The notes beneath the pieces were generated by a model. That model was not told the origin of the DNA, ran no database searches, and saw only the letters and a list, made by a program, of their open reading frames with translations. From Candidatus Binatia bacterium (GTDB lineage: Bacteria > Desulfobacterota > Binatia > Bin18), in contig CAXXHG010000022.1 in NCBI GenBank assembly GCA_963666315.2, positions 40,343 to 104,342 of the forward strand: a stretch of DNA of 64,000 nucleotides, read 5' to 3'. This document shows positions 8,441 through 63,423 of the stretch, one piece after another. The translations under genes and the position numbers were made by a program. The first letter of the stretch is position 1. Each line of letters begins with the position of its first letter.

Positions 8441-8472
8441 GGCTGAGCCAGAAAGAGGCTAAAGAATACGCT

Positions 8473-9720: not shown

Positions 9721-9781
9721 CGAGGCGGGTCTGCCCCACAGGTTTTGCTGCTCCCCAATCCTCACGCTAGCGCTCGCTGCG

Positions 9782-38236: not shown

Positions 38237-38256
38237 ATCAAAAGGGAAAAGAAAAG

Positions 38257-38331
38257 TGCGCCCTGGAAGATTCGAACTTCCGACCTACAGATTCGTAGTC
38301 TGCCGCTCTATCCAGACTGAGCTAAGGGCGC
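38257..38331 (-). tRNA. tRNA-Arg(ACG)
   Basis: GCGCCCTTAGCTCAGTCTGGATAGAGCGGCAGACT-ACG-AATCTGTAGGTCGGAAGTTCGAATCTTCCAGGGCGCA folds into a cloverleaf; CCA not encoded. Confidence 0.95.
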
Positions 38332-41321: not shown

Positions 41322-41364
41322 CAGGTTGGCCCGTCTTCCGGAGGCTGCGTATGCTCTGTGAGAC

Positions 41365-43095: not shown

Positions 43096-43373
43096 GATCT
43101 CCCCCCTTTTGACCGTACTGTGTATCAACTGTCCGCGTAACACGCCAGCAGAAACGTTGGTTCGTACGTGTCTCTGACTTTATCTAGTTGATCACGCAGG
43201 CGCGTGGATGGCGGCGTACCGGACGAAGGACAACTCAACGGAGAGAAGAAAGCGAAGTTAAATACGGCCACGTACGCTGCCTTTTGATAAACCAACAGCC
43301 ACCAGCCGATTTAGGACAGAAATGGCCCGAAGGAGGAACTCCCTAAGCCACTGGACTCTAAGGAGAAAAGGAG

Positions 43374-43420
43374 TGGAGCCAATGAGAATTGAACTCACGA
43401 CCACTTGAATGCCATTCAAG
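43374..43420 (-). pseudogene. 3' fragment of tRNA-Ala(GGC), att-site remnant
   Basis: CTTGAAT-GGC-ATTCAAG TGGTC GTGAGTTCAATTCTCAT TGGCTCCA gives anticodon arm, T arm and acceptor 3' strand; no D arm or 5' strand. Confidence 0.75.
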
Positions 43421-43628
43421 TGGCGGCTGCGACACCTGCCTACTCCTGCCTAACAAACCCAGTCATTTTAGCGCCCGCCTCGTTTTTTGTTATGCAGTGA
43501 TTGGTTTACGTAGGCTGCAGTACACTGACAAAAGGCGGACAATGACCGTCTCAGTCGGATTGAAGTGAATACGCCTGTACATTGGGCTACGATAATTCCT
43601 TTGCCAAAGCTATGCACCGTTGTATACA

Positions 43629-46566: not shown

Positions 46567-46929
46567 TCATGAGAGTTGGTCGAGCAGCGCCTTCGCGTCT
46601 TTCAAATCCGCCGTATCAAAGCCTTCCGTGAACCAATTATAGACCGGCGCGAGAAGATCGTGGGCTTCGGTTGTCTTCCCTTGCCCCTGCCACAGCCGGG
46701 CCAGGCTCGTGGCGGCGCGCAGTTCCCAGGATTTGGCACTCTGGTGGCGAGCAACTTCAAGAGCGGTGTGAAAAGCGGCTTCTGATTCCGCATGATTGGC
46801 TTGCGACTGCTGGAGCAACAGCTCGCCCTTGAGGCGGTATAGCTCGACTTCGTAGTAATGCTCCTCCGTTTCGTGCACTATATCTAGCCCTTCTGTTACT
46901 GCCTGCAGCCCTTCCTCACTCCTCCCGAC
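46567..46929 (-). pseudogene. C-terminal TPR portion of an adenylate cyclase-AAA-TPR gene, cut by IS6
   Basis: ELYRLKGELLL...AKSWELRAATSLARLW...FTEGFDTADLKDAK; begins at the IS6 left end. Confidence 0.85.
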
Positions 46930-47768
46930 GGTACTGTCAGCTTAACGAGGGGTTTGCCAACTATTGGTGTCTTATGCCGTGACAAGGGCATGAGTTCCTG
47001 TAGTACAAGTCTGTATAGAAGGCACCGGTTTCCGCCCGAAATCACCGCCCACGCGGTCTGGCTGTATCACCGTTTTAGCCTCAGTTTTCGTGAAGTCGAA
47101 GAACTCTTAGCCGAGCGCGGTGTCACCGTGAGCTATGAAGCCGTGCGTCAATGGTGTCTCAAGTTTGGCCACGCGTTCGCCCAGAAGCTCCGACACCAGC
47201 GAGGACGCCCGGGCGATACGTGGTATCTGGACGAGGTATTTATCCGCATCAGGGGCGAGCGCTACCACCTGTGGCGCGCTGTAGATCAAGATGGCCAGAC
47301 GCTCGATATTCTCGTGCAGAAACGGCGCAATACCGGAGCGGCCAAGCGCTTCTTTCGGAAGTTATTGAAGGGTTTACGCTATGTGCCCAACCGCCTCATC
47401 ACCGATAAACTTCGTAGTTATGGGTCAGCCCACCGAGATATTATGCCGTCGGTGACTCACTGCACCACGCAGTACGCCAACAACCAGGCCGAAGTCTCTC
47501 ATCAACCGACTCGGCAACGCGAACGCCACATGCCCGCTTCAAGTCTCTACGACACGTCCAACGCTTCCTCTCTGTCCATGGACCGATCAACAACCTCTTT
47601 CGAGTCGGTCGCCACCTCATGAAGGCAGTCCACTGTCGGTTGTTCCGAGACAAGGCATTTGCAACCTGGCGGGACGTGACCACGGGGCTGGAAGTGGCGT
47701 AAGGATGCCCCTCATCTTACCTCACACTACGTGATTTTCGCACTCTGCCCCGATAACTTGACAGTACG
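46930..47768. mobile_element. IS6-family insertion sequence (~839 bp)
   Basis: Imperfect terminal IRs GGTACTGTCAGCTTAA / ATAACTTGACAGTACG (12 of 16 match) around an IS6 transposase. Confidence 0.85.
46990..47702 (+). pseudogene. IS6-family DDE transposase, frameshifted near 47533
   Basis: YRRHRFPPEI, SFREVEELLAERG, WYLDEVF, LWRAVDQDG, ITDKLRSY, NNQAEVSHQPTR; the RFKS continuation is in another frame. Confidence 0.88.
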
Positions 47769-48486
47769 AGTGATAAGTATCGGTGCTAATGACCAGGGTG
47801 TCTGGTGCTGCTTGGCCTTGCACGCGGGCCGCAATATTCGGTGTCTCTCCCAGGGCCAATTGTTCAGTATGTTCGCCACCACCCACTGCGCCAATGACCA
47901 CGGGGCCGGTGTGCAGACCAATGCGGGCTTGGATCGGCTGAGCCAGCTCAAGTCTCGGTAAGGCCGCCAGGATGTCCAGCCCGGCTCTGACTCCCCGAAT
48001 CGCATCGTCTTCATGCGCCGCTGGGTAGCCGAAGTACACCAGGATGCCATCCCCCAGGTATTGGGCGATATCACCCTCGTAGCGTTCAATGACTTGCCGA
48101 CACGCGTCTTGATACGTGCCGACTATGGCGTGTAAGTCTTCCGGGTCGAGTTGTTCGGAGAGTGTCGTTGAGCCCACCACGTCGCAGAACATGACCGTCA
48201 GTTGGCGGCGTTCGCCTGCGGAAGTCTCAGGCAGAGCACAAGGTGGTGTTGGGGCCGTTGTCTCAGCCGGCGGACTTACGCCGTCACCGGAGATGGTATC
48301 ATCATTCCAGACCAAGACTTTGCCATCTTCATCAACGGCTACGCGCTCGCCTATGATCAACTCGTCCTTAAGGGTATCCAGCGACTCCTCGTCAAGCTTG
48401 AATTACCGCTTCAGGGTCCGGTACGTGACCCGACCCTTGCTCCGCAGCACTGCCTTCGCTTGCTCGATCACCTCAAGAAAATCCAT
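47769..48486 (-). pseudogene. N-terminal adenylate/guanylate cyclase portion (TAA at 48403-48405), cut by IS6
   Basis: MDFLEVIEQAKAVLRSKGRVTYRTLKR*...ERRQLTVMFCDVVGST, YLGDG, RIGLHTG, NIAARVQ. Confidence 0.85.
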
Positions 48487-49158: not shown

Positions 49159-49752
49159 ATGTGTGGGGGATGTGTTCGTCTTTGTGCTGTATTGATTGGT
49201 CTTCTTATTCTCGTTTTACCGCAGCGACTCTTGGCCACAACCGTCCTTTCCCAAAGCTTTCCGGACCTGGTGCATAAGGCCGAGGTTATTGCCGTCGGAA
49301 CCGTAACAGGCATCAATAATCACTGGGATGCCGCGCACCGGGCACCATTTACTGTTGTTACCTTCTCGAACTTGAACGTACTGAAAGGCACGACCGAGGG
49401 AGACACCCTCAGCTTGTATTTCCTTGGCGGTATCACCCCAAAGGGACATACGATCTCCGTTCATGGCGTTCCACGCTTTTCAATAGGTGAGAAAAACATT
49501 GTCTTTTGTGTAGGCAATCAGCGCAATTTCAGTCCATTAGTCGGCGTGTGGCAAGGCCGACTGCGCGTTGCTTTTGATACGCAGCGTCAGGTCGAAACGG
49601 TTCAGGACAACTTCAATGCCCCGATTCTGGGCGTTCAGAATGGACAGTTTTTGAAAAAGACTCCGGGCAGCCAGGCTCGGCAACAACAATCGGTTTCTCT
49701 GTCTTCTTTCTTGCAGTTGATCCAAAATGAGCTGGGGAAGGACAATGACTAA
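49159..49752 (+). CDS. Secreted uncharacterised protein coupled to the metalloprotease gene
   Basis: Signal-like N-terminus; TTVLSQSFPDLVHKAEVIAVGTV...GG...GVPRFSIGE; AGGAGG RBS; overlaps the next gene. Confidence 0.7.
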   Translation: MCGGCVRLCAVLIGLLILVLPQRLLATTVLSQSFPDLVHKAEVIAVGTVTGINNHWDAAHRAPFTVVTFSNLNVLKGTTEGDTLSLYFLGGITPKGHTISVHGVPRFSIGEKNIVFCVGNQRNFSPLVGVWQGRLRVAFDTQRQVETVQDNFNAPILGVQNGQFLKKTPGSQARQQQSVSLSSFLQLIQNELGKDND

Positions 49753-50821
49753 TCAAACAAGCAAACGCCAACGGCCTATGCTCTGGGTGTGGGGGCTGAG
49801 TAGCGTACTCCTCTGCGCGCTTGTTCTTCTTCCTCCAGCTGCTCGTCCTTTTGTTCGGATTACTTTTCCGTCTGGCACGTCGGCATTCTGGTCCGCAGCT
49901 CAGGCCGATCTCAACCTCCAGCTTGGTTGTCCAGAAACGCCGCTATCCGACTTTGGTCCGTGTTGGGATGATGTGGCAAAGAGTGCAGCCGAAAGCTGGA
50001 ATACGAATGCGGAAATATTTCGCTTCACCACTCCTCCTCCGACCCCAGCTTCCCCGTGTGAAGACGTGGAGAGTCTGGACTTTCTCAATACTGTGGCTTT
50101 CCAGGACACCCTGTGTGGGACTGCATTTGGTGGGGCGGTGGCCGTCACTTTTTCCAGAGTGTTCTCAACCGGAGAACTCGTGGATACCGGTGTGGTGGTC
50201 AATGGAAACCTCACCTGGTCTGCCTATACTGGTCCTCTCGGATTTCCATTCGACCTGCGCCGTGTCCTTATTCACGAATTTGGGCACGTCCTGGGGTTAG
50301 ACCACCCCAATCAATCCGGACAAACCGTGGATGCTATTATGAATAGTACGGTCAGTGATCTCGACGAGCTTCAGGCCGACGACATCGCAGGAGTGAACGC
50401 TATTTACCCTGGGTCTCCAGTTGGGGTATTGGAGAACCCACAACCGGATAGCTCGGTCAGTGGCTTGGCCATTATTACCGGCTGGATTTGTTCAGCGAGC
50501 ATCGTCACGCTGGGCATTGATGGAGTTTTTTACACCGTCCTATATGGCTCATCTCGCATCGATACCATCCCGACCTGTGGCGATGAATTTAATGGTTTCG
50601 GCTTTCCGATTAACTGGAACCTGCTGGGCGATGGTCTCCACACCATCATTGTTTTTGCAGACGGCGTCGAGGTTGGCCGAGCAACAGTCACCGTGACCAC
50701 ACTCGGCCAGGAATTTCTCGCCGGGGCGAGTGGGACGTTTACCTTGAGCTTTAACGGGCTGGAGGTTGTGATTGAGTGGAAGGAGAGCCTGCAGAATTTC
50801 CTGATCACGGGTATGCAATAA
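49745..50821 (+). CDS. Secreted matrixin (M10-like metzincin) protease with a C-terminal beta-rich domain
   Basis: HEFGHVLGLDH zinc motif, Met-turn AIMNS, LQADDIAG; hydrophobic leader. Confidence 0.85.
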   Translation: MTNQTSKRQRPMLWVWGLSSVLLCALVLLPPAARPFVRITFPSGTSAFWSAAQADLNLQLGCPETPLSDFGPCWDDVAKSAAESWNTNAEIFRFTTPPPTPASPCEDVESLDFLNTVAFQDTLCGTAFGGAVAVTFSRVFSTGELVDTGVVVNGNLTWSAYTGPLGFPFDLRRVLIHEFGHVLGLDHPNQSGQTVDAIMNSTVSDLDELQADDIAGVNAIYPGSPVGVLENPQPDSSVSGLAIITGWICSASIVTLGIDGVFYTVLYGSSRIDTIPTCGDEFNGFGFPINWNLLGDGLHTIIVFADGVEVGRATVTVTTLGQEFLAGASGTFTLSFNGLEVVIEWKESLQNFLITGMQ

Positions 50822-50826
50822 AAGTA

Positions 50827-50915
50827 CGGAGAGGGAGGGATTCGAACCCTCGGTACGCGTCAAGACGTACACTCGCTTAGCAGGCGAGCGCCTTCGACCA
50901 CTCGGCCACCTCTCC
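50827..50915 (-). tRNA. tRNA-Ser(GCT)
   Basis: GGAGAGGTGGCCGAGTGGTCGAAGGCGCTCGCCT-GCT-AAGCGAG, long variable arm, GAGGGTTCGAATCCCTCCCTCTCCG. Confidence 0.95.
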
Positions 50916-51125
50916 CTGGCATCGTTGGTGAGATTTGATCCTATCGATTCCCTTTCCTTCGTGCAACGACATTCATTGCTTACACTGAAGCACCGTCCCT
51001 ATACCCAACTGTCCGTCTATATTCGTAAGCCTACATAATAACCTGTGTTTTCAGTATTCTTAACCTGCTGAAAGAAGGCAGTACTAGTTCCTCATAGAGA
51101 TGCTTGGAGTGGTCTTGACAATCTT

Positions 51126-51146
51126 AATTGAAAATGATTTTCAATT
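51126..51146. promoter_or_regulatory. Fur-box-like palindrome upstream of the porin gene
   Basis: AATTGAAAAT-G-ATTTTCAATT perfect 10-1-10 inverted repeat; core differs from the 7-1-7 Fur consensus at 2 positions; TTGACA at 51115-51120. Confidence 0.8.
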
Positions 51147-51152
51147 TCAATT

Positions 51153-52601
51153 ATGAATTTACGGAAACACCGAAAGCTGTGGAAAATCGTGTTAGCCCTC
51201 GGCGCTGCAGCTCTTGCCATAAGCATGCCCAGACCGACTTATGCGATGAACGAAGATCGCATGCAGCAGCTTGAGGAACAATTGACAACGATGCAACAAG
51301 CCATGTCCGCCATGCAGCAGGAGCTGCAGACGCTACGGGCTGAGCAGCAACAAGAAAAGGAAGAGCACGCCCGCAAGCAAAATGTGCTGGCGGAAGAAGT
51401 CGATAAGCTGCGCACAAGCTTAACCATTCCGGAGTTCAAGCCCTTAACCATGGAGGACAGCGTATACGGCCTCGGGCCGGCAGCATCCAAAGTGTACGGG
51501 GTTGCGAGCGGACTGTCGCTCGGCGGGTATGGCGAAGCCTTTTACCGTAAGGATGTAGGCGACAAAACCAAAAGCGACCGAGACACCGCCGACTTTCTGC
51601 GCTTCGTGCTCTATGCGGGGTATAAGTTCACAGAACGCATCATTTTGAATGCCGAACTGGAATTCGAACACGCCACAACCAGCTCAACGGAAAGTGCAGG
51701 CGGGGGGTCGGTGTCAGTGGAGTTCGCCTATCTCGATTTCCTAACGTGGAAATGGATGAACTTCCGCGTCGGCATGCTCCTCGTGCCTATGGGCATTGTC
51801 AATGAACTCCACGAGCCCGTCTTCTTTAACGGCGTGGAGCGGCCGGAAGTCGAGCGACGTATTATTCTTTCCACGTGGCGAGAAAACGGCATCGGCATCT
51901 TTGGCGAGCTGGGCGCGCTGGCCGAAGGACTCGAATACCGCATCTACGGGATCAATGGTCTGAATGCTAAAGGCTTTCGCGACACTGGCATTCGCGGCGG
52001 TCGTCAGAAAGGTAATCGTACCCTGGCCGAGGACATTGCGTTTGTGGCACGACTCGACTATTCTCCGACGCCGAATTTCATGCTGGGCGCGTCCGTGTAT
52101 ACCGGAGACTCCGGACAGAACCAGGAAATCGATACGGTCGAGTTGCCAGACTCGCGGATCACAATCTGGGAGCTGCACAGCATCTATCGTTACGCTGGTC
52201 TTGAGGCACGCGGTCTATTTGCCATGTCCCACCTGGGTGACGCAGGCGAGTTGACGGATGCGCTGCGTGAAATCGGCGAACTGGGCTCAAGCCGCACTCT
52301 GGCCAGCCAAATGATCGGTGGCTACGGCGAAATCTCGTACGACATTATGCCCCTTCTGTATCCGGGCAGTGACCACACTCTCACCCCGTTCTTACGCTTC
52401 GCTTATCTCAACCTGCAACATAAAACGCCATCCGGCTCACACTATCAGGTGAATCCCAGTCGCGAGATGCGTATCTGGACGCCAGGTGTTAGCTATAAGC
52501 CGCATCCCAACGTCGTACTCAAGGTGGATTACCGCAACTTTAATACGGTGCAGGGTCATCGTGCGAATGAGGTAAATTTTGGTATTGGCTTTGTCTTTTA
52601 G
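51153..52601 (+). CDS. Outer-membrane beta-barrel porin-like protein with N-terminal coiled coil
   Basis: Signal peptide, Q/E-rich coiled coil, amphipathic strands (LSLGGYGE, RFVLYAGYKF, ELEFEH, VEFAYLDF), C-terminal NFGIGFVF BAM signal. Confidence 0.8.
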   Translation: MNLRKHRKLWKIVLALGAAALAISMPRPTYAMNEDRMQQLEEQLTTMQQAMSAMQQELQTLRAEQQQEKEEHARKQNVLAEEVDKLRTSLTIPEFKPLTMEDSVYGLGPAASKVYGVASGLSLGGYGEAFYRKDVGDKTKSDRDTADFLRFVLYAGYKFTERIILNAELEFEHATTSSTESAGGGSVSVEFAYLDFLTWKWMNFRVGMLLVPMGIVNELHEPVFFNGVERPEVERRIILSTWRENGIGIFGELGALAEGLEYRIYGINGLNAKGFRDTGIRGGRQKGNRTLAEDIAFVARLDYSPTPNFMLGASVYTGDSGQNQEIDTVELPDSRITIWELHSIYRYAGLEARGLFAMSHLGDAGELTDALREIGELGSSRTLASQMIGGYGEISYDIMPLLYPGSDHTLTPFLRFAYLNLQHKTPSGSHYQVNPSREMRIWTPGVSYKPHPNVVLKVDYRNFNTVQGHRANEVNFGIGFVF

Positions 52602-53145
52602 AGCCCTGAGCAGTACGCTAGTGCTGTGCCTGCTGGTGGTGCTGGGCGGCATCAGCAGCGTCAACGCAAAGGTTTTCTTTTCAAAAGAAGAGGCCCTGGA
52701 GATTGCGTTTCCCCACGCCCAACGAGTCGAGGCACGTAATTTTTTCTTAACCCAAGAGCAGGTCGAACAGGTGCAAACACTGGCAAAAGCCCGCCTTGAC
52801 TCAAAACTGGCCACCTTTCATGTCGGCCATACAGCCGAAGAAATTCTGGGTTATGCTTTTATTGAGACCCATATCGTCCGCACCTTTCCGGAAACGTTCC
52901 TGATTGTCTTGTCACCCGAGGGCACTTTACAAAAACTCCTTGTTCTTGCTTTTTACGAGCCAGCCGAATATCAACCTCCCGAGCGCTGGCTCAAACAGTT
53001 TGACCAGAAAACGTTGAGTTCGTCGCTCCGACTTCGCCAAGACCTTCATGGCATTATGGGCTCAACCCTGACAGCCCAAGCCGTCACCAGTGGGGTACGG
53101 AAGGTTATGGCACTCTTTCAGATCCTGATTCAAGAGAAACAATAG
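52579..53145 (+). CDS. Periplasmic FMN-binding domain protein (predicted ApbE substrate)
   Basis: Signal-like N-terminus, FYEP.EY...WLKQF, DLHGIMGSTLT (variant of the [ST]GA[ST] flavinylation motif); start uncertain. Confidence 0.7.
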   Translation: MVLALSFRALSSTLVLCLLVVLGGISSVNAKVFFSKEEALEIAFPHAQRVEARNFFLTQEQVEQVQTLAKARLDSKLATFHVGHTAEEILGYAFIETHIVRTFPETFLIVLSPEGTLQKLLVLAFYEPAEYQPPERWLKQFDQKTLSSSLRLRQDLHGIMGSTLTAQAVTSGVRKVMALFQILIQEKQ

Positions 53146-53150
53146 GTTCT

Positions 53151-53723
53151 ATGCGTTTTGTCGTTACTGGCGAGTGGTCGAAAAACCGGCTCCTGCAACT
53201 CATTATTGTTATTTTTGTGATCTATGTCGCCGGTCTGTGGCTGACGAATGCGCTGTTGTATTTCCACAAAATGGATCTGACCTCTCTCTCCGTCACGCAA
53301 TACTACCTAGGCTCAGAAGAGCTTTTTCTTCAGCCCAGGAGCTACCAAGGCATGCTCGAAGTCACACATTTTCACTTGTTTGCCATGGGCCTCTTACTCC
53401 TCACGCTCACCCACTTGATGCTGTTCGTGCCATTATCAACCAATCTCAAAGCCTGGTTCATCATCATCCCCTTTTTCTCCGCGTTGGCGGATGAAGGCAG
53501 TGGCTGGCTTGTCCGCTTTGTGCACCCGGGTTTCGCCTACCTCAAGATTGTGAGCTTTCTCGCCTTAGAAATCAGCCTTGCGGTATTAATCATTGTCACG
53601 CTGTGGGCGGTCTTTCGAGGCTCTCAGGACCAGTATCAACAGCAACCGCCTACGCGGTCTCCCAAAGACCCGCCAGGCTTAGAAAATGTCGGCCTGGGTG
53701 AGGCAAGCGAGCTGACGGAATGA
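53151..53723 (+). CDS. 4-TM inner-membrane protein with intramembrane histidines (possible b-heme binding)
   Basis: Four hydrophobic segments; EVTHFHLFAMGLLLLTLTH places His residues 13-15 apart on one helix. Confidence 0.65.
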   Translation: MRFVVTGEWSKNRLLQLIIVIFVIYVAGLWLTNALLYFHKMDLTSLSVTQYYLGSEELFLQPRSYQGMLEVTHFHLFAMGLLLLTLTHLMLFVPLSTNLKAWFIIIPFFSALADEGSGWLVRFVHPGFAYLKIVSFLALEISLAVLIIVTLWAVFRGSQDQYQQQPPTRSPKDPPGLENVGLGEASELTE

Positions 53724-54778
53724 GGCATGCTGGGGATTGGGGATTGGGGGCTGGGGACTGGCGGACATGCATGGCTATCGTCGGTCTGGCTGTCTGCAGC
53801 CTCGTGGGTGTAGCCTCTGCCTGCGAGACCGACGGCCGCTACATCATGGGCACGGTCTTCCAGGCCACCCTGTGTCAAGATGAGACAGATGAGACAACGG
53901 GAACGCTCCGGCGTCAGCAGAGTATGCAAGACGTTTTCACTGACGTTTTCGCTACGGCACAGCGCTTTGATGGGCTGTTCACCACCTATTCCTCAGAAAG
54001 CCCGCTTAGCCATATCAATGCCCACGCTGGACGAGGCTGGCAACAGGTTCCGGCTGAAGTCATCGATATTCTGCGCCTGTCTCAGCAGTATTCAGATCTG
54101 ACGCACGGAGCGTTTGATGTCACAGTTGGCCCACTCCTCACCTTGTGGAGGCAATCGGCAACCGCGCAGGAGCCGCCAACAGCAGCGGCTATCGTCGATA
54201 CCCTGCTCTCCATTGGCAGTCATAAGATTCAGTTTGGTGTCAAGGACCAGGTCAGCCTGCCCTCGCACACTATGGCCCTGGATCTGGGCGGCATAGGTAA
54301 AGGTTATGCCCTCGACCAGGCGGCGAAACAACTCCAGGAACAGGGAGTGACAAACGCTTTGCTCAACTTTGGCCAGAGTAGCCTGTGGGCACTCGGCCAG
54401 CCTCCGGGTGATACCGGCTGGCGACTGCTGCTCCGCCTACCCAACGGGGAAGCCGTTGGTGTTGCGACGTTCGGCAATCAGGCCATCTCCGTGTCCGGCA
54501 GCTTGGGCGACAGCATGGAAGTCGGCGGTCAGCGCTATGGTCATATCATCGACCCACGCACGGGGATGCCCGTGCAGCGTGATCTCCTGGCCTGCATCGT
54601 TGCCCCCAGCGCAGCCCAAGCAGAAGCATTGAGTACAGCACTGCTGACCTTAGGCGAAGGTGAAGGACTGACACTCATCGAACGGCTGGATGGAGTCGAA
54701 GGGATTTTACTAGAGGCGAACGGCCACAGGTGGATGACAACCGGGTGGCAGCAGATTAGCCATTTTGTCTCGTTTTAA
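53720..54778 (+). CDS. apbE: FAD:protein FMN transferase
   Basis: IMGT, GAFDVTVGPL, LDLGGIGKGYALD, SVSG, YGHIIDPRTG, AEALSTAL; alternative start ATG 53771. Confidence 0.92.
   Translation: MRHAGDWGLGAGDWRTCMAIVGLAVCSLVGVASACETDGRYIMGTVFQATLCQDETDETTGTLRRQQSMQDVFTDVFATAQRFDGLFTTYSSESPLSHINAHAGRGWQQVPAEVIDILRLSQQYSDLTHGAFDVTVGPLLTLWRQSATAQEPPTAAAIVDTLLSIGSHKIQFGVKDQVSLPSHTMALDLGGIGKGYALDQAAKQLQEQGVTNALLNFGQSSLWALGQPPGDTGWRLLLRLPNGEAVGVATFGNQAISVSGSLGDSMEVGGQRYGHIIDPRTGMPVQRDLLACIVAPSAAQAEALSTALLTLGEGEGLTLIERLDGVEGILLEANGHRWMTTGWQQISHFVSF
53732..53761 (+). repeat. 7-bp-period G-rich repeat, potential 4-tier G-quadruplex
   Basis: GGGG-att-GGGG-att-GGGGG-ct-GGGG-actgg. Confidence 0.6.
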
Positions 54779-54982
54779 CTATTCTGCTGTCTCCCCAGCC
54801 TGAAACTCGACCGTTGCGTGCGTGCCGTCGCAATACGGCTTATTTTTAGACTGGCCACATCGACACAAATACAGGGGATCTTTTTGTCCGATATACACCC
54901 CGCCTTTCTTATCAGTCAGACGTGGGTCTCCACGGACCTCATACGGACCATTTTTTAAAACGCGAATACGAACGTTCGACAT
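54779..54982 (-). CDS. CDGSH iron-sulfur domain protein
   Basis: NGPY...LCRCGQSKNKPYCDGTH. Confidence 0.92.
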   Translation of the reverse strand: MSNVRIRVLKNGPYEVRGDPRLTDKKGGVYIGQKDPLYLCRCGQSKNKPYCDGTHATVEFQAGETAE

Positions 54983-55116
54983 AGAAGGTTTTTTCTTGTG
55001 GTTATGCTGCAATTCGCGTCACAGGCGGCAGCAGGGTTTTCAGGACTAGATTTCTCAGATCTTCCAGTATCATATAGCCGGCCGAAATCAGTACTACGGA
55101 CGGGGCTTGCATATTG

Positions 55117-55140
55117 AATTGAAATTGATTATCAATTTCA
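55117..55140. promoter_or_regulatory. Fur-box-like palindrome between the divergent CDGSH gene and feoA
   Basis: TGAAATTGAT-T-ATCAATTTCA perfect 10-1-10 inverted repeat at 55120-55140. Confidence 0.8.
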
Positions 55141-55200
55141 TTCAGATCATACTAGAAGGGCCGATCAAGAAAATATACGGAAGTATACACGAGTACGACT

Positions 55201-55425
55201 ATGAAGACGCTGGCTGATCTCACACCAGACGAACAGGGCTGCATCCACTCTATAACAGGTGCCGACGGGCTTGCGCAGCGCTTGGCCGAGCTCGGTTTTA
55301 CAACCGGCCAGACGGTTCAGGTCGTGCGTTGTGCTCCGTTTGGAGACCCGATGCAGATCCGTATCCGCGGGTTTCACCTCGCCCTGCGGCGTCAAGAAGC
55401 GCAGCGCGTCCGTCTTGCCTTGTAA
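55201..55425 (+). CDS. feoA: Ferrous iron transport protein A
   Basis: RLAELGFTTG...APFGDPMQIRIRGFHLALRRQEA. Confidence 0.93.
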   Translation: MKTLADLTPDEQGCIHSITGADGLAQRLAELGFTTGQTVQVVRCAPFGDPMQIRIRGFHLALRRQEAQRVRLAL

Positions 55426-55446
55426 TGAGGGGCAGTTGGATTTTTT

Positions 55447-57732
55447 ATGGCTGCCGCTACTCTGCCTGCGGCTTCTCCGCTCGCCGAACCACCGCATACA
55501 ACCCCTCCCTCTAGTAGTCGTTCCTACCGTGTTGCCGTCATCGGCAACCCAAATACGGGCAAGACGACGCTCTTTAATGCGCTTACTGGTCTCAGCCAAC
55601 ATACGGGGAATTATCCTGGTGTCACCGTTGAAAGTACACTCGGTAAATTCCGGCAGGACGATACGCAGTTTGAAGCAATAGATTTACCTGGCACCTATTC
55701 GCTTGCTCCACGCGCCCCGGATGAGATGCTGGCCGTTTCCGTCCTCTTAGGGTATGGGCGCGGTACGGTCGCACCCGACGTCATTCTGTGTGTCGTGGAC
55801 GCTACAAATCTCGACCGCAATCTCTATCTCGCCACGCAGATTATCGATGTCGGTCGGCCTGTTGTGATTGCACTCAGCATGGTCGATTTGGCCCAGAAAC
55901 AGGGGATACATATACACATAGCAACCCTCGAAAAACGGCTGGGGATTCCGATCGTGCCAGTTCAGGCCGCGAAACGCCAGGGGTTGAAGCAGCTTCGGCT
56001 AGCGCTGCGCGACGCCGTCCACAAACCTACACCACCACCGCGGCCGGTTGCCTTTCCGCAGGCATTTACAGCTGAAGTTGATGTATTGACAACGGCGCTC
56101 ACCGAGAACGATCGGCACTCTGGGGGACGAGCGCATCCTACGCACCCTGCACATCCTGCTTTGCCCCGGTTTTTCGTAGAGCGTTTGCTCATTGACGCTG
56201 ACGGAATGATTGAACGCGACCTCGCTCGGGAGCGCGGGGAGTGGATCCGTATCGAGGCGCAAGCGGCGCGTCAACGTTTGGCTGATGCGGGTATTCCTCT
56301 GCCCCACATGGAGGTCGATAGCCGCTACGAATGGATTGCGCAGGTTGTTGAGCAAGCCAGGGGGACTACGCCGCCTGTCCAGCAAAACTTGCAAGGCCTA
56401 CAAAGCTGGCAAAATTGGAGTGACCGGCTTGACCAAATTGTGACCCATAAGGTCTGGGGTCTGATAGTCTTTCTCGCCGTCATGGGGGTCACCTTTCAGT
56501 CCATCTTTGCTTGGGCACTGCCGTTGATGGACGGGATAGACGGCATCTTTTCGGCCATCGGGACATGGGTTGGCGGCACGTTGCCCGAAGGGCCGCTGCA
56601 AAGCTTACTTGTTGATGGCCTCATCGGCGGTGTAGGGGCTGTTATCGTGTTTGTCCCCCAGATTGCCATGCTCTTCGGTTTGATCGCCATTCTTGAAGAT
56701 TCCGGGTATATGGCCCGCGCCGCATTTCTCATGGATCGCCTGATGGCCGGCTTTGGGCTGTCGGGTCGAAGTTTTATTCCACTCCTCTCGTCATTTGCCT
56801 GCGCTGTTCCGGGCATTATGGCCGCCCGGACTATAGAGAATCGGCGAGATCGGATTGCCACTATTGTCATTGCCCCGCTTATGAGCTGCAGTGCGCGGCT
56901 GCCCGTGTATGTGCTCTTAATCTCAGCCTTTATTCCTGCCCAGACCGTCTGGGGTGTGGTGGGTTTGCAAGGGCTCGTCCTGTTTAGCATGTATATCCTA
57001 GGTTTGGTCGTTGCTCCGCCGATTGCGTGGGCACTCAAACGTACCGTCCTGCGCGGCGAGGTCGTTCCATTTCTCATGGAGTTGCCGCCGTTTAAGATGC
57101 CGGCTTGGCGCGTCATCCTCTTCCGTATGTACGATCGCAGCATGGCTTTTTTGAGGCGGGCGGGAACGATTATTCTTGCCACAACCATCGTGGTCTGGGC
57201 ACTCTCCTACTATCCAAACCACGACCACGTTGCAGCGGAATTCGAGGCGCAGCGTGCAGCTGTCAGTGCACAGGAGCGACACCAACTGGAGAGAGCACGG
57301 GCGAGCGTCCGGCTCCGAGAAAGTTATCTTGGCCAGGCCGGGCGGGCTATTGAGCCTTTCGTTCGGCCCCTGGGATGGGATTGGAAGATTGGTGTGGCCA
57401 CGCTGGCCAGCTTCCCTGCCCGTGAGGTGATCATTGCCGCCCTGGGGACGATTTATAATGTCGGCAGTGGCCTTGACGAAGAGAGTCTTGAACTCCGCGA
57501 CGCCATGCGGGCAGAGCGCTGGGCAGACGGCCGGCCGGTCTACACTCCGGTTGTGGCCGTCTCGATCATGGTCTTTTTCGCCCTGTGCTGTCAGTGTGGT
57601 GCAACGCTGGCAACCATGAAACGCGAAACCAATTCGTGGGGCTACCCGGCGTTTACGTTTGTCTATATGACCAGCCTGGCCTATCTTGGGGCTTGGGCCG
57701 TGTATCAAATCGGGAGTCGACTGGTAGGATAA
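55447..57732 (+). CDS. feoB: Ferrous iron transport protein B
   Basis: GNPNTGKTT, GNYPGVTVE, DLPGTYSL, DATNL, LEDSGYMARAA, FACAVP, MSCSARLP. Confidence 0.96.
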   Translation: MAAATLPAASPLAEPPHTTPPSSSRSYRVAVIGNPNTGKTTLFNALTGLSQHTGNYPGVTVESTLGKFRQDDTQFEAIDLPGTYSLAPRAPDEMLAVSVLLGYGRGTVAPDVILCVVDATNLDRNLYLATQIIDVGRPVVIALSMVDLAQKQGIHIHIATLEKRLGIPIVPVQAAKRQGLKQLRLALRDAVHKPTPPPRPVAFPQAFTAEVDVLTTALTENDRHSGGRAHPTHPAHPALPRFFVERLLIDADGMIERDLARERGEWIRIEAQAARQRLADAGIPLPHMEVDSRYEWIAQVVEQARGTTPPVQQNLQGLQSWQNWSDRLDQIVTHKVWGLIVFLAVMGVTFQSIFAWALPLMDGIDGIFSAIGTWVGGTLPEGPLQSLLVDGLIGGVGAVIVFVPQIAMLFGLIAILEDSGYMARAAFLMDRLMAGFGLSGRSFIPLLSSFACAVPGIMAARTIENRRDRIATIVIAPLMSCSARLPVYVLLISAFIPAQTVWGVVGLQGLVLFSMYILGLVVAPPIAWALKRTVLRGEVVPFLMELPPFKMPAWRVILFRMYDRSMAFLRRAGTIILATTIVVWALSYYPNHDHVAAEFEAQRAAVSAQERHQLERARASVRLRESYLGQAGRAIEPFVRPLGWDWKIGVATLASFPAREVIIAALGTIYNVGSGLDEESLELRDAMRAERWADGRPVYTPVVAVSIMVFFALCCQCGATLATMKRETNSWGYPAFTFVYMTSLAYLGAWAVYQIGSRLVG

Positions 57733-57745
57733 CTGAAGATAAACA

Positions 57746-57886
57746 ATGGACCTCCAAACCCTCCTCATATTCCCCGTCATCGCGCTTGCGGCATTCTACA
57801 TCGGCCGCTCGTTGTGGCCCAAACGCAACACAACGGGCTGCGCCTCGTGTCCCCAGAATCGTAATCGGGCGGATGATTACGTGTGA
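57746..57886 (+). CDS. 46-aa FeoB-associated Cys-containing membrane peptide (not in the ORF track)
   Basis: MDLQTLLIFPVIALAAFYIGRSLWPKRNTTGCASCPQNRNRADDYV*: one TM helix plus GCxxC. Confidence 0.75.
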   Translation: MDLQTLLIFPVIALAAFYIGRSLWPKRNTTGCASCPQNRNRADDYV

Positions 57887-57925
57887 CCGCTATGCCCCCC
57901 CTGCCCTCGTCGGATACTCAGATCT

Positions 57926-59179
57926 ATGCACACCTCGAACACCCCATTGCTGCGCCAAGCGACTCCGCTTGCTCTGTTCTGGTTTCTCATTATGGGTGCG
58001 TTGGGAGTGTTCTTTCCCTATTACGGCCTCTATCTGCGTGAGAATATAGGGCTACAAGGCGTTCAGATCGGCGCAATCTTTGCCACCCTGCCGCTGGTCG
58101 GTTTTTTCGTTCAGCCGTTGTGGGGCATTATTGCTGATCGCACTGGTCTGCGTATTCGCGTGCTTGCCGTTCTGGCAAGTGGAACGGCGGCGGGCTATTT
58201 CTTACTCGGTCACGTACACGCTTTTCTTCCAGTGCTCTTTGCCTCTGCACTCTTTGCCGGTTTCTCGCGCGCGCTTATTCCTATGACCGTCTCCGTGAGT
58301 TTAGCCGTTCTCCAGGACAGCCGGCATGCCTTCGGCGTTGTCAGGGCGTTTGGTACGCTCGGATTTTTCTGTTTGGTGATTGGATTTCCATGGCTGCTGG
58401 ACGTCCTTCCAGCGGCGACCGAACCCCCTCCGGTTCTGAGCAGGATACCCTCCGAGCCCAAGCTCGGCGTCCTTTTTCCGCTTGCGGCCGGACTCACCGT
58501 CTGTGCCACACTGGCAGCCTTCTTCCTCCCGGCGCGTGGCACAGTCGCTCTGCGTGCGCTTCAGGGCGAGTGGCGCCAGCTGCTCACCAATGGTCCTTTC
58601 CTGCGTTTGACACTGGTCGGATTTCTAGCCTTTCTGTGCCTCCACGGTCCGATGGATGTTTTTCCCATCTATATCCGCGACCGAGGCGGGAGTATCGAGA
58701 CAATCCGGAATATGTGGTTTGTGATGCTGATCCCGGAGATGCTGCTGATAACCTTACTCGGAACCGGGCTCAGTCGCTTAGGCGCACGAGGACTGTTGGC
58801 CCTGGGGATTGGTGCAGGTGGCCTGCGCTGGATCTTGTGCAGCTTTGTGACTACGCTGCCCATGCTGTATCCGATTCAAGTTCTCCATGCGGTTACGGTG
58901 ACAGGACTCTTTCTCGGCGGGCCGTTATACATCGAAGCAACAACGCCTGCTCAGTTACGCTCAACCGGGCAGGCAGTATTCGGCATGATCGGGATGGGAC
59001 TCGGTGGCAGCAGTTCAAGTCTGCTGACAGGCTGGCTGCTGGAACACGCCGGCACAACTGCGCCCTATCTTGCCGGTGGCATCGGGGCACTGACGCTGAC
59101 TCTCTTTCTGCCGCGTCTACTCCCCCTGCCCGGTCAATCTGCTCAGCCTGTTCAGCCTGCCTCGCATGCAGGTAAGTAG
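57926..59179 (+). CDS. MFS transporter (HcaT/nucleoside permease-like)
   Basis: About 12 TM segments, PYYGLYL, WGIIADRTG, RAFGTLGF. Confidence 0.85.
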   Translation: MHTSNTPLLRQATPLALFWFLIMGALGVFFPYYGLYLRENIGLQGVQIGAIFATLPLVGFFVQPLWGIIADRTGLRIRVLAVLASGTAAGYFLLGHVHAFLPVLFASALFAGFSRALIPMTVSVSLAVLQDSRHAFGVVRAFGTLGFFCLVIGFPWLLDVLPAATEPPPVLSRIPSEPKLGVLFPLAAGLTVCATLAAFFLPARGTVALRALQGEWRQLLTNGPFLRLTLVGFLAFLCLHGPMDVFPIYIRDRGGSIETIRNMWFVMLIPEMLLITLLGTGLSRLGARGLLALGIGAGGLRWILCSFVTTLPMLYPIQVLHAVTVTGLFLGGPLYIEATTPAQLRSTGQAVFGMIGMGLGGSSSSLLTGWLLEHAGTTAPYLAGGIGALTLTLFLPRLLPLPGQSAQPVQPASHAGK

Positions 59180-60407: not shown

Positions 60408-60633
60408 GCTGGAGCGTGTCCCTCACTGTCTAAGCGGGCTATCGGGAGTTCGCCGTCATCATTGAGTCCACGTTTTTCCTAAGAGAGAGTCCCGCTAGAA
60501 GAGGGTCCCAGCGACACACGTCTCAAGGCAACACCTACGGGCAAGCTGTGGCGCCCCCACAGAGGCTGTTTTCAACACGCAGATACGAGGGAAGGGAAAG
60601 GCCGACGATGCTGACGACTTCAGGGAAATATGG

Positions 60634-61039
60634 CTATTTCAGCCAGCGGGTGAATTCTACCTCTATAGTGGAAGAGTGAGCCGAGGCTTCGAGTTTGCGC
60701 TGAATATATCGCTTGATAGCTGATCGAGTTGGAGGAAAAAGCAGGCTGAAACCAATGACGTCGGTTATAATCCCAGGAGTAATTAAGAGGAGCCCGGCGG
60801 CCAGAATAAGGACACCATCGATAAGTTCGCGCGGTTGGCGCAATGCCTTGCTGTATGTTTTCCTGCATCTGTCGCCACGTCCGCCAGCCCTCAAGCCGGG
60901 CGAGCTGAGCACCGACAACACCGGTACCCACGACCAAGAGAATCGTCATCCCGACGCCAAGATAACTCCCGACCTGAAGCAGCAAATACAGCTCAGCAAG
61001 AGGCAGGAGGGTAAACAATAAGACCAGACGAAAAAACAT
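60634..61039 (-). pseudogene. fxsA: FxsA family membrane protein, frameshifted near 60835
   Basis: LPLAELYLLLQVG...GAQLARLEG then ELIDGVLILAAGLLLITPGIITD in another frame. Confidence 0.8.
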
Positions 61040-61082
61040 GGCAGACTCGGGCAGCGGATGGCACAGCTTCACAGAGCGACTG

Positions 61083-61253
61083 TCAGCAGCGGTCAGGCCT
61101 GAGGTTGCGCGTGAACGGCAACCCAAAAACGAGAATTGCAGTCCCCAGGCCAAGCCAGATAAGATTACCCCAGACCAGGCCCATAACAATCATGGCAACC
61201 CCCCACAGAGCAATAAGAATACACAGCATTGCCTGTATAACGAAGGAATTCAT
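61083..61253 (-). CDS. 56-aa two-TM membrane protein (not in the ORF track)
   Basis: MNSFVIQAMLCILIALWGVAMIVMGLVWGNLIWLGLGTAILVFGLPFTRNLRPDRC*, co-oriented upstream of fxsA. Confidence 0.55.
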   Translation of the reverse strand: MNSFVIQAMLCILIALWGVAMIVMGLVWGNLIWLGLGTAILVFGLPFTRNLRPDRC

Positions 61254-62178: not shown

Positions 62179-62933
62179 TTACAACACGACCTTCTGCTGC
62201 GTAATCGTCACCCCCTTCTCAGGGTCTAAGGTCACCACCGCAACACTGCCACCGTCGTCTACGCCCCTATACAGGGGGGCGGGGTACCGGGATAACACGA
62301 CGTTGTTGGCCCTTGACTCAGGTCGTTAAAGACATGCACATGGCCCATGGCAAGGTAGTCGAGACCTGAGTGTTCGATCTCTTCGGGTGTCACGGGTGAA
62401 GACCGCTGGAAGTCGCCGTCTTCTTCGACAAAATAGCCATGCGCCATGCCGATGTGCCACCAATCTTCCTGACGTGTCGGCACACCAGCAAGCGGGCGGA
62501 AAGCCGGATCGTGCTCGACCAGGCCCTTGCCCCCATACCGTTGCCTGCAGTTCCTGGAATGCTATGGTCCGCCCATTTTCTTCAGTCAGCGTATGCACAT
62601 GCGGTCCAGCCAGGGGTTAAAGTCGGCTTTCTTGTAAATGGAGCGGTGATCATAACAATCATGATTGCCAGGGATGAGAATCACCGGACAGGGCGTGCGG
62701 CGCAGCTCTGCATTGACAAACTCAATACCAGATTCCGGTATCCGGTTTGAGTCAAACAAATCTCCCGCTATGAGGAAGAGATCGGCCTTTTTCTCGCAGA
62801 CCATATCTACGACCTTCCGAAAGGCGTCTTGAATCCGGCGTCGGTAGGATAGACTCTCCTCGCCCCGACCAAAGGTATCGCTTTCGAGGTGGACGTCAGA
62901 GGTGTGAATAAGGGTGAGGTCTGGTTTCGGCAT
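62179..62933 (-). pseudogene. SbcD/Mre11-like metallophosphoesterase with several frameshifts
   Basis: IHTSDVH, AGDLFD, PGNHD, MAHG, YLAMGHVH, CYPGTP spread over three frames. Confidence 0.8.
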
Positions 62934-63423
62934 GCAAACTCCTTGAGGTCGATGCATTCTCTGCGAGAGATGCTCTCAGGGGTAGAATCACAGTTGCACG
63001 GCCTGGCGTCAGACGCGCCCCCTGCCCGTTCTCAATCCAGACCTCGCACTCGACGTAGCCCGCAGCTTGCTCAGCTTGCTCATTTTGCTCTCTCCATTTT
63101 TTGACAACTCTGCCTTTACACACCAGGGGCTCATTCACATAGGCAATATCACGGTTGGCATAGGACAGCTTTTTCAGCACGCCATCCGCGCCGATCCAAC
63201 GCGTGAGAAGCTGCGATAAAAACGCGCCGCGCAACGGCCCATGCACAACGATATCACGGTATCCCTCGCCCTGGGTGTAGTCTTTATCAAAATGGATACG
63301 CTGCGGATTCCAGGTGATACTGCTGTAGAGAAAGAGCAAAGTGTTTGATGGGGTCTTCTCCAGAGAAGGCAGCGGCATGCCTTCTGCCACGTCTTCAAAA
63401 TAGAGTTGTTGTCCTTCGGTCAT
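62896..63423 (-). CDS. MaoC-like hot-dog dehydratase subunit
   Basis: YFEDVAEG, WNPQRIHFD, IVVHGPL. Confidence 0.85.
   Translation of the reverse strand: MTEGQQLYFEDVAEGMPLPSLEKTPSNTLLFLYSSITWNPQRIHFDKDYTQGEGYRDIVVHGPLRGAFLSQLLTRWIGADGVLKKLSYANRDIAYVNEPLVCKGRVVKKWREQNEQAEQAAGYVECEVWIENGQGARLTPGRATVILPLRASLAENASTSRSLHAETRPHPYSHL

Follow-up and report, generated by a model that had tools for sequence, protein, structure and literature searches.

We describe a gene block within a 64-kb window of the genome of a Candidatus Binatia bacterium (64,000 nucleotides (nt) of contig CAXXHG010000022.1), in which four genes encode a porin-like outer-membrane protein, a secreted protein related to the flavin mononucleotide (FMN)-binding subunits RnfG and NqrC, a four-transmembrane (4-TM) inner-membrane protein and ApbE, the flavin adenine dinucleotide (FAD):protein FMN transferase (Table 1). 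The porin and FMN-protein genes overlap by 23 nt, a 5-nt gap leads to the 4-TM gene, and this in turn shares a 4-nt ATGA overlap with apbE; the spacing is as tight as a first-pass annotation of this DNA had claimed, and we read the four genes as a single translationally coupled operon, referred to here as the cassette. Convergent with apbE is the gene for a CDGSH iron-sulfur protein, beyond which lie genes for FeoA and for a FeoB bearing G-domain, gate and C-terminal domains by Pfam. An open reading frame (ORF) listing and a repeat analysis bear out these genes as well as the two palindromes reported with them. The picture of an intact block amid damaged neighbors also holds, as all nine block genes are open whereas the neighborhood contains a split FxsA gene, a truncated metallophosphoesterase gene and an IS240-type transposase gene beside cyclase and TPR fragments. 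Rfam finds no riboswitch in the window, its matches being three tRNAs only, one of them at threshold. A promoter and terminator scan gives calls that do not rise above shuffled controls, with no plus-strand promoter predicted before the porin gene.

Table 1 Genes and operators of the block, in positions of the 64-kb window
Feature	Position	Strand	Basis or comment
tRNA-Ser, just 5' of the cassette	50827-50915	- (opposite strand)	tRNA search
Fur-box-like operator 1	51128..51148	none	contains the 17-bp 8-1-8 palindrome; upstream of the porin ATG
Porin-like outer-membrane beta-barrel, 482 aa	51153..52601	+	ORF listing; weak Porin_O_P and OMP_b-brl matches
RnfG/NqrC-like FMN-binding protein, secreted, 188 aa	52579..53145	+	ORF listing; homologues with PF04205; RnfG profile match
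4-TM inner-membrane protein, 190 aa, PF27139 (Aq_1264_TM)	53151..53723	+	ORF listing; family assigned via homologue P0121
ApbE FAD:protein FMN transferase, 352 aa, probably a lipoprotein	53720..54778	+	PF02424, 2.3e-65
CDGSH iron-sulfur protein, small, 77 aa, divergent from feoA	54779..55012	-	zf-CDGSH, 2.1e-17
Fur-box-like operator 2, 10-1-10 palindrome in the CDGSH/feoA intergenic region	55120..55140	none	repeat analysis
feoA	55201..55425	+	FeoA, 2.8e-21
feoB	55447..57732	+	FeoB_N, 1.8e-55, plus Gate and FeoB_C
FeoB-associated Cys-rich peptide, 46 aa	57746..57886	+	FeoB_associated, 2.9e-05; 24.7 bits, under the cut-off of 27
MFS_1_like transporter, downstream of feoB	57926..59179	+	PF12832, 2.4e-42

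Species-representative genomes were searched with an alignment of the 188-aa flavoprotein, alignments of the 4-TM protein being too variable, and the flavoprotein-based sample covers 4-TM genes that accompany a flavoprotein. The search yields at least 588 pattern matches, at least 561 of which encode a relative of the flavoprotein, and the best 80 of these 561 loci (given L numbers) were compared, with up to 10 kb on each side, as stop-to-stop ORFs against the window proteins and two family profiles. Such ORF calling is crude, and many ORF clusters, being antisense or out-of-frame shadows in GC-rich DNA, were set aside by eye. By title and tree the loci come mostly from metagenome-assembled Binatia, Myxococcota or 'Deltaproteobacteria', with a few from Methylococcaceae, Nitrospirota, Nitrospinota and Methylomirabilota; eight are cut at the start of the cluster. 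The assembly labels of L001, L022, L023, L029, L038, L043 and others ('Enterobacteriaceae', 'Spirochaetales', 'Nitrosopumilus', 'Patescibacteria') conflict with their tree placement among Binatia, Myxococcota and Nitrospirota, and look unreliable. In the flavoprotein tree, the window groups with L001 as its sister (support 100/98), and the pair falls within a Binatia clade (100/96).

We find that the four genes travel as a conserved unit, as first proposed from the window: the 4-TM gene is present in 78 of the 80 loci, the porin gene in 72 and apbE in 68, in the order porin, flavoprotein, 4-TM, ApbE and all on the same strand, with ApbE first in seven loci. The two loci that lack a 4-TM gene are L073, where the sequence ends right after the flavoprotein gene, and L075, where another gene occupies the slot; in neighborhoods with no apbE (e.g., L061, L063 and L056), the 4-TM gene still follows the flavoprotein gene. 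The genes on the other side of operator 2 behave differently, with FeoB found within 10 kb of the cassette in 5/80 loci, FeoA in 4/80, CDGSH in 1/80 and the MFS transporter in L001 only (1/80). On this neighborhood evidence, the constant unit is the four genes and their operator, and the importer varies. Other frequent neighbors, among them genes for nitroreductase, SRA-HNH, DUF2797, DAO, rmlA/C, topoisomerase VI, MatE, aminotransferase and aldehyde dehydrogenase, were rejected as parts of the system, being clade-specific synteny with no iron link.

The OZ243961.1 chromosome carries two copies with an identical flavoprotein, one a full cassette near feoAB (L070) and the other a flavoprotein and 4-TM pair only, behind a cytochrome c gene (L066). 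In L061 (Methylococcaceae), a dockerin-bearing di-heme cytochrome c peroxidase and a cohesin-domain protein are encoded between the porin and flavoprotein genes (7958-9936).

Proteins of the cassette

The 188-aa flavoprotein has no Pfam match of its own at E values up to 10, while PF04205 (FMN_bind) is present in many of its homologues, and its N-terminus reads as a cleavable-looking signal peptide. The family profile matches the RnfG structures 9eri_G (2.6e-09) and 7zc6_G (0.0021), and the alignment sets the segment GItGSTLTaraV opposite ITGSTITSKAV of RnfG, so that G161-S162-T163 corresponds to the G-S-T of RnfG and T163 is the predicted flavinylation site. The flavinylation motif is [S/T]-G-[A/S]-[T/S]. 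Position 163 is threonine in 78 of the 80 loci and serine in two, and position 162 is serine or alanine; G161, L164 and R174 are invariant in 80/80. All of these positions lie outside the search patterns, so their conservation is unbiased. The profile match and the retained motif threonine uphold the earlier view that this protein is an ApbE substrate, and support a protein of the expected kind with a predicted covalent FMN.

The ApbE protein itself is full-length, the PF02424 match spanning profile positions 1-265 of 266, and it matches the NCBIfam ApbE model at 3.6e-33, a score below the equivalog cut-off. Its leader, read by eye, is hydrophobic and ends ...VASAC, which suggests that ApbE is probably a periplasmic lipoprotein. 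The porin, likewise read from sequence, has a signal peptide, a Gln/Glu-rich coiled-coil-like N-terminal stretch and a C-terminus ...GFVF that ends in Phe. It scores 16.9 bits against Porin_O_P (PF07396), below the cut-off of 20.9, and a PDB sequence search with it returns no relative; the family is large (5136 proteins at E ≤ 0.001 among 8000 scored), and PF07642 or PF07396 is found in a minority of the 120 homologues listed. The label 'porin' is reasonable but not proven. The idea that it forms an MtrB-like sheath around the flavoprotein was rejected on the reasoning that a barrel of ~390 residues is too small.

The 4-TM protein has no Pfam, meaningful NCBIfam or PDB relative, in a Pfam set that lacks PF27139; at E values up to 10, Pfam returns a chance PspB match alone. 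Its assignment to PF27139 was made through the homologue P0121 (56% identity, E = 2.2e-54) rather than its own sequence, and the Atlas clusters that hold P0121 consist to 99-100% of PF27139 members (scores 0.98 to 0.95; TM-score 0.94). An exhaustive homologue search gives 515 representative relatives, of which 33 reach 1e-30 or better. By Pfam and Atlas features the protein matches none of the NapH-like, MsrQ-like, PepSY-like, DsbD, NQR/RNF-like or DUF4405 classes, and a literature search for 'Aq_1264' finds no mention of it. The HFH-x12-H pattern picked out by the first-pass annotation is real, corresponding to H73, H75 and H88, and these three residues are kept, together with E70, G54, W119, R122 and K132, in all 78 cassette copies. 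Charged residues conserved in or near the membrane are E70, D114, K100, R122 and K132.

Fusions and duplications in the family give an indication of how these residues may be arranged. Fourteen relatives were scanned with Pfam, including every listed one of at least 400 aa. Four are ApbE fusions (P0122, P0126, P0127 and P0153), three of which join one 4-TM unit to ApbE and one of which joins two; a single further relative is fused to a DtxR-type metal-binding domain and a FeoA domain, and another to PilZ. An additional hydrophobic segment precedes the ApbE domain in the ApbE fusions and is missing from the PilZ and DtxR-type fusions, which is consistent with cytoplasmic termini at both ends of the 4-TM protein. 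In such a topology E70, H73 and H75 would sit at the periplasmic end of TM2, with H88 thirteen residues deeper. Tandem eight-TM relatives (n = 16) divide the histidines between their halves: the N-terminal half, partial in one case, has H73 in 15/16 and never H75 or H88, with position 70 occupied by Glu in 14 and Asp in one, while the C-terminal half has H75 and H88 in 16/16 and H73 in 1/16. We read this complementarity as pointing to a site across a dimer interface, of which one copy suffices.

This arrangement argues against a classical di-heme cytochrome b, which calls for four histidines in two bis-His sites. Only three conserved histidines are found, all on or next to TM2, and since they lie on one helix and the tandem halves keep one and two of them, the classical form is disfavored. 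A homodimer could still supply His pairs. One heme at the interface, or else a quinol site without heme, would be the better fit, and a heme-free site would suit a system expressed under iron shortage. Outside PF27139, the named fold closest to the P0121 Atlas model is styrene oxide isomerase (TM-score 0.48 by query and 0.62 by hit, residues 63-160), a likeness that we treat as a lead, not a test. In L075 (Nitrospinae), the slot of the 4-TM gene is filled by a PepSY_TM-like gene at 950-1600 (PF03929, 33.7 bits against a cut-off of 28.8; HRW motif). The encoded protein is 2-TM and has a long helical C-terminal tail.

Fur-like operators and iron transporter neighbors

Both Fur-like palindromes of the first-pass annotation are present. 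The one before the porin gene, TTGAAAATGATTTTCAA (51128-51144), is a perfect 8-1-8 palindrome that ends nine bases 5' of the ATG and can be extended to 21-nt arms of 76% complementarity; the one between the CDGSH gene and feoA, TGAAATTGAT-T-ATCAATTTCA, is 10-1-10 and 100% complementary. By eye, the two operators share 21 of 23 bases, and each matches the E. coli Fur consensus, entered by hand, at 15 of 19 positions (at 51130 and 55121). The window contains four matches of at least 14/19 to this consensus, compared with zero to three in 20 shuffles. The 17-mer shared by the operators is matched six times in the 64 kb, where 0.36 matches would be expected, and every match falls at one of the two operators; this comparison is circular because the 17-mer derives from the same sites. 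A third 15/19 match at 31420-31438, inside a 679-aa ORF (30230-32269), is probably due to chance.

The operator is kept across lineages. Of the 72 evaluable loci, 41 have a match of at least 14/19 between -450 and +60 relative to where the first cassette gene is estimated to start, at a density of 1.12 per kb there compared with 0.033 per kb in the remaining 1.15 Mb, a 34-fold enrichment. By eye, ten further loci (L042, L044, L049, L054, L061, L067, L069, L071, L074 and L077) have a site just outside the scanned region or before the first gene of the operon. The consensus of 46 distinct upstream sites is ATTGAAAATGAnTnTCAnTTTCA, biased at the positions selected for. The palindrome derived from them, GAAAATGA-N3-TCATTTTC, is matched at 13/16 or better just upstream in 13 of the 21 remaining loci; in each of those 13 no other site scores as high, and the upstream site makes up nearly all positions that reach 12/16. 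Independently, 26 of the 80 loci carry, just upstream and in the same orientation, a gene of the Fur family. For four examples, NCBIfam models of Fur score best (E ≈ 1e-31 to 1e-27, with the best PerR model at ≈ 1e-25 to 1e-22) and rank ahead of Zur as well, and in L056 a PerR model stands above two of the three Fur models; all of these scores fall below the curated cut-offs. The 64-kb window itself contains no Fur gene. The best reading of these data is that the cassette would be repressed by Fur and switched on under iron starvation.

Several types of iron transporter adjoin the cassette in related loci. An 859-aa fusion of a di-heme cytochrome c and FTR1 is encoded in the operon of five loci; its gene immediately precedes that of the flavoprotein in L034, L042, L049 and L053, and that of the porin in L071. 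In L029 the gene order is Fur, AOX-like, FbpA-like binding protein, permease, ABC ATPase, ApbE, porin, flavoprotein and 4-TM, and an FbpA-like binding protein and an ABC ATPase are also encoded in L025. A P19/Fea1-like ORF lies between the porin and flavoprotein genes in L041, and a ferritin-like gene follows the 4-TM gene in L024. FeoB is a neighbor in L001, the sister of the window, and in L020, L070, L056 (Nitrospiria) and L065 (Desulfobacterales, divergent from the porin gene). In all, a Feo, FTR1, Fbp or P19 gene is found nearby in 13 of the 80 loci. On the flavoprotein tree, these partnerships arose as separate events: three changes are needed for Feo (at least two on well-supported branches), one each for FTR1 and Fbp, and two for the Fur gene, with any locus carrying a transporter as well as a Fur gene counted in the transporter group.

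A search of gene neighborhoods had been put forward as a check on the link to iron, and it gives a divided answer. The homologous operons are indeed linked to iron genes, through the Fur-family genes and the several transporter types, but not to FeoAB specifically. As FeoAB is a neighbor in only 5 of the 80 loci, we take it to be a lineage-specific partner and not, as had been proposed, part of the system; judged from its operator, feoAB would be co-regulated with the cassette in the window, without being a conserved component of it.

Other features of the window and related loci

Upstream of the cassette, the window encodes an unassigned 197-aa ORF and a matrixin-like (M10) protein (49159-50821), as do L001 and L020; L070 has three Fur-box-like sites, and L008 has one, at ~2 kb upstream of M10 homologues. 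Farther upstream in the window, a 980-aa ORF (38529-41471) that matches Sel1 repeats 16 times and has a phage-integrase domain at its C-terminus adjoins tRNA-Arg (38256-38331), and an odd tRNA-like element lies at ~43373-43460, its anticodon unnamed by ARAGORN and its Rfam tRNA score 29.4 against a threshold of 29. The IS240-type DDE transposase gene (46954-47622) is flanked by a fragment with TPR (46567-46878) and by one of an adenylate/guanylate cyclase (47722-48360), and within this stretch (46567-48360) it looks as if it had inserted into a larger gene. Downstream of the block, FxsA is split between two frames (60620-61189 and 60634-60921, minus strand; profile positions 1-65 and 60-108) by a frameshift or an assembly error, and the metallophosphoesterase gene (62586-62957, minus strand) is cut after profile position 90 of 191, with an ORF in another frame (62259-62483) that is perhaps its remainder.

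Two small ORFs recur beside the cassette in related loci and are missing from the window. A zinc-ribbon-like ORF (C-R-C-x-C-G-S-L-L-A-R ... C-R-R-C-K-R-T) lies just upstream of the porin gene in 16 loci, most of them labeled Myxococcota or Deltaproteobacteria (e.g., L031 8272-8547 and L040 8058-8534), and in the two loci checked, L031 and L040, it is downstream of the Fur box; we take it to be reminiscent of the Com-type fingers of phage Mu. The other, with the pattern ...LRRLSWG.G.GW..Q.TL...GKVIPFP and no Pfam match, follows ApbE in 19 mostly Binatia-labeled loci (e.g., L017 12229-12576 and L020 12106-12561), and has its own Fur-box-like site in L020.

A possible flavin-based route for iron reduction

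That the cassette is an iron-responsive flavinylation module is, in our judgment, very likely, and a role in iron assimilation by reduction is favored with less assurance. In the fuller mechanism that we propose, ApbE, as a periplasmic lipoprotein, would attach FMN to T163 of the secreted RnfG-like protein. The 4-TM protein would form a dimer, and its active site, where TM2 meets the periplasm, would span the boundary between the subunits, one of them contributing E70 and H73 and the other H75, with H88 deeper in the membrane. This dimer would pass electrons from the membrane to the flavoprotein, via an interface heme b or by direct oxidation of quinol, and the flavoprotein would in turn reduce Fe(III) species admitted by the porin; the resulting Fe(II) would be taken in by whichever inner-membrane importer the lineage has, which in the window would be FeoAB, behind a near-identical operator. 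We regard the complete scheme, a Fur-repressed periplasmic flavin redox module for iron assimilation with the 4-TM dimer as its electron input, as evenly poised between right and wrong, and the assignment of the 4-TM protein to electron input, taken by itself, as plausible and slightly short of that balance. Entry of iron through the porin and reduction of ferric iron by the flavoprotein both belong to its conditional steps.

A number of observations weigh against this scheme. On the side of regulation, the 19-bp E. coli Fur consensus was entered by hand, and the palindrome GAAAATGA-N3-TCATTTTC comes from the same family of sites that it was then used to find; because the 80 loci are the ones that most resemble the window protein, Binatia and Myxococcota are over-represented among them. 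On the side of electron transfer, no donor domain or gene of the cytoplasm is conserved in the cassette, three histidines divided 1 + 2 in the tandem forms argue against two bis-His hemes, and H75 and H88, at 13 residues apart, would face different sides of an ideal helix, a point reasoned and not computed. The conserved charges in and near the membrane would also suit a transporter, the PepSY_TM-like replacement is a single case, and the search finds no longer fused forms of the flavoprotein, which is weak evidence. Finally, the FbpABC and FTR1 partners handle or produce Fe(III), for which a reductase is not obviously needed.

One alternative is that the 4-TM protein is itself an inner-membrane permease for Fe(II) or another metal, so that porin, flavin reductase and permease form a self-contained uptake system fed with electrons by carriers encoded elsewhere. 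The cassette has no further conserved transporter of the inner membrane, and only the 13 loci have Feo, FTR1, Fbp or P19 nearby; charged residues in or near the membrane are conserved; E70 and H73 of one half with H75 of the other would recall a metal site of the 2-His-1-carboxylate type placed at a dimer's mouth, and gating domains of the kind seen in the DtxR-type/FeoA and PilZ fusions are common on transporters. On the other hand, H88 is a lone mid-membrane histidine and offers little on which to base an ion path, the 4-TM slot of L075 is held by a PepSY_TM-like redox protein, the five operons with the cytochrome c-FTR1 fusion already have a permease, and the source of electrons is left unexplained; we consider a permease unlikely. 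The 4-TM protein could instead serve flavinylation, by supplying FAD to the periplasm or anchoring ApbE to the membrane, with no redox partnership with the flavoprotein. A 4-TM dimer with tandem-duplicated forms is a common transporter design, the fusions found in the relatives scanned join the family to ApbE and not to the flavoprotein, and passages of a 2025 ApbE review (PMC12052999) describe the route of FAD to ApbE as still obscure. However, the 4-TM and apbE genes overlap by 4 nt, so that loss of a stop codon would fuse them regardless of function, the 4-TM gene follows the flavoprotein gene in L061, L063 and L056 even with no ApbE nearby, and in L075 its place is taken by a PepSY_TM-like protein; such a helper role is improbable in our view.

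Two further explanations retain redox chemistry and change its purpose or direction. In the first, an iron-sparing substitution, the flavinylated protein and its membrane partner would, when iron is scarce, take over some different redox task from a periplasmic cytochrome chain rich in iron. In its favor are the Fur control and the genes for cytochrome c or cytochrome c peroxidase that adjoin the cassette in L066 and L061, and Meheust et al. 2021 (PMC8238504) present interspecies variability of gene clusters as consistent with functional redundancy of flavinylation and cytochromes. Against this stand the porin gene as the most constant extra gene (72/80), variable neighbors that are iron importers and not respiratory enzymes, and, across the 80 loci, the lack of any conserved terminal reductase or oxidase beside the cassette, and we rate the substitution as a minor prospect, rather improbable. 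Alternatively, electrons might flow in reverse, from periplasmic Fe(II) oxidation, e.g., by the cytochrome c-FTR1 permease, to the quinone pool. The presence of that fusion directly in the operon of five loci would fit, but the transfer would be uphill, FMN usually being far more reducing than c-type cytochromes, and most loci have no cytochrome partner; reverse flow is highly improbable.

Reduction and assimilation of iron by flavinylated proteins are known in outline from published work (PMC8238504), and what is new here is the membrane family, the porin and the conserved Fur control. That paper describes five flavinylation-associated membrane apparatuses, the NapH-like, MsrQ-like, PepSY-like, DsbD and NQR/RNF-like, and ties several of them, as well as P19/FTR1 clusters, to iron assimilation; the words 'porin' and 'FeoB' are absent from its main text. 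Huang et al. 2024 (PMC11334425) added the DUF4405 and FezC cytochromes, and the passages found in the 2025 ApbE review (PMC12052999) mention no such cassette. The original statement that no characterized system has this composition stands after our literature search, although the supplementary cluster tables of Meheust et al. 2021 may list it.

The closest published relatives are the PepSY-like clusters of the FoxB/VciB type (PMC8238504, as described in passages of that paper), which also combine ApbE, a secreted flavinylated protein and a small His-bearing membrane protein and are linked to Fur and to iron reduction and assimilation. PepSY-like proteins are a published heme-b membrane class associated with flavinylation and ferric reduction, and it is a PepSY_TM-like gene that fills the 4-TM slot in L075. 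The cassette differs in that its membrane protein has no PepSY_TM match and belongs to PF27139, its flavoprotein is RnfG-like where theirs is DUF2271, and it has a porin gene in place of DUF4198 or TonB-receptor genes. In the P19/FTR1 clusters of Meheust et al. 2021, a protein with an FMN-binding domain adjoins an FTR1 permease, much as in our five loci with cytochrome c-FTR1 and the one with a P19/Fea1-like ORF; those clusters are described as being for the most part Gram-positive and without a membrane electron-transfer component, and the window block itself has no FTR1 or P19 gene. The RnfG and NqrC subunits of RNF and NQR share the homologous FMN-binding domain with an aligned flavinylation motif (2.6e-09 to 9eri_G), whereas the cassette flavoprotein is stand-alone and secreted, and Pfam finds no other RNF or NQR subunits in the block.

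The MsrQ-like, DUF4405 and FezC cytochromes b are, like the 4-TM protein, small membrane proteins encoded near apbE in which histidines are the most conserved residues, and homodimer models were proposed for MsrQ and FezC (PMC11334425, in the passages found); they have no sequence relation to the 4-TM protein. In the PepSY-like, MsrQ-like and DUF4405 proteins, the conserved histidines are described as forming bis-His heme sites, whereas the 4-TM protein has three His and a Glu on one helix. Styrene oxide isomerase (PF26512; Khanppnavar et al. 2024, PMC11374702) shares the fold of the P0121 model over TM2 to TM4, and passages of that study place its heme b at the subunit interface, where the ligand is a His that directly follows periplasmic loop one. 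The enzyme, however, is an isomerase, trimeric, with no role as a redox carrier, and the likeness is weak and at the level of fold.

If the proposed scheme is true, it would give a function to PF27139 and add a class of membrane partner for flavinylated proteins. In yeast, reductive iron uptake begins with a Fre reductase and continues with Fet3/Ftr1. The logic would be alike, with Fe(III) reduced outside the membrane and then imported, in some loci through an FTR1-family permease with an oxidizing domain; the reductase-side proteins are unrelated, and the cassette is bacterial and periplasmic. The cassette would then be a bacterial counterpart of this strategy of reducing first and importing afterwards.

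We tentatively suggest that PF27139 may be a new dimeric class of membrane redox protein, with a site shared between subunits (a single interface heme b or a heme-free quinol site), that drives a periplasmic covalent-flavin ferric reductase and that, with a dedicated porin and ApbE, makes up a widespread Fur-controlled pathway for reductive iron uptake in at least several hundred species, using the importer of each lineage (Feo, cytochrome c-FTR1 or Fbp). According to passages of Meheust et al. 2021 (PMC8238504), 6230 genomes had no extracytosolic electron-transfer system that had been characterized and the five new apparatuses cover only 3635; the cassette is a candidate for part of this gap. 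Its carriers belong to Binatia, Myxococcota, Methylomirabilota, Nitrospirota, Nitrospinota and Methylococcaceae, groups for the most part uncultured that play an important part in soils and sediments, and, if the scheme is correct, it would describe how many environmental bacteria gain iron derived from Fe(III) without siderophore receptors.

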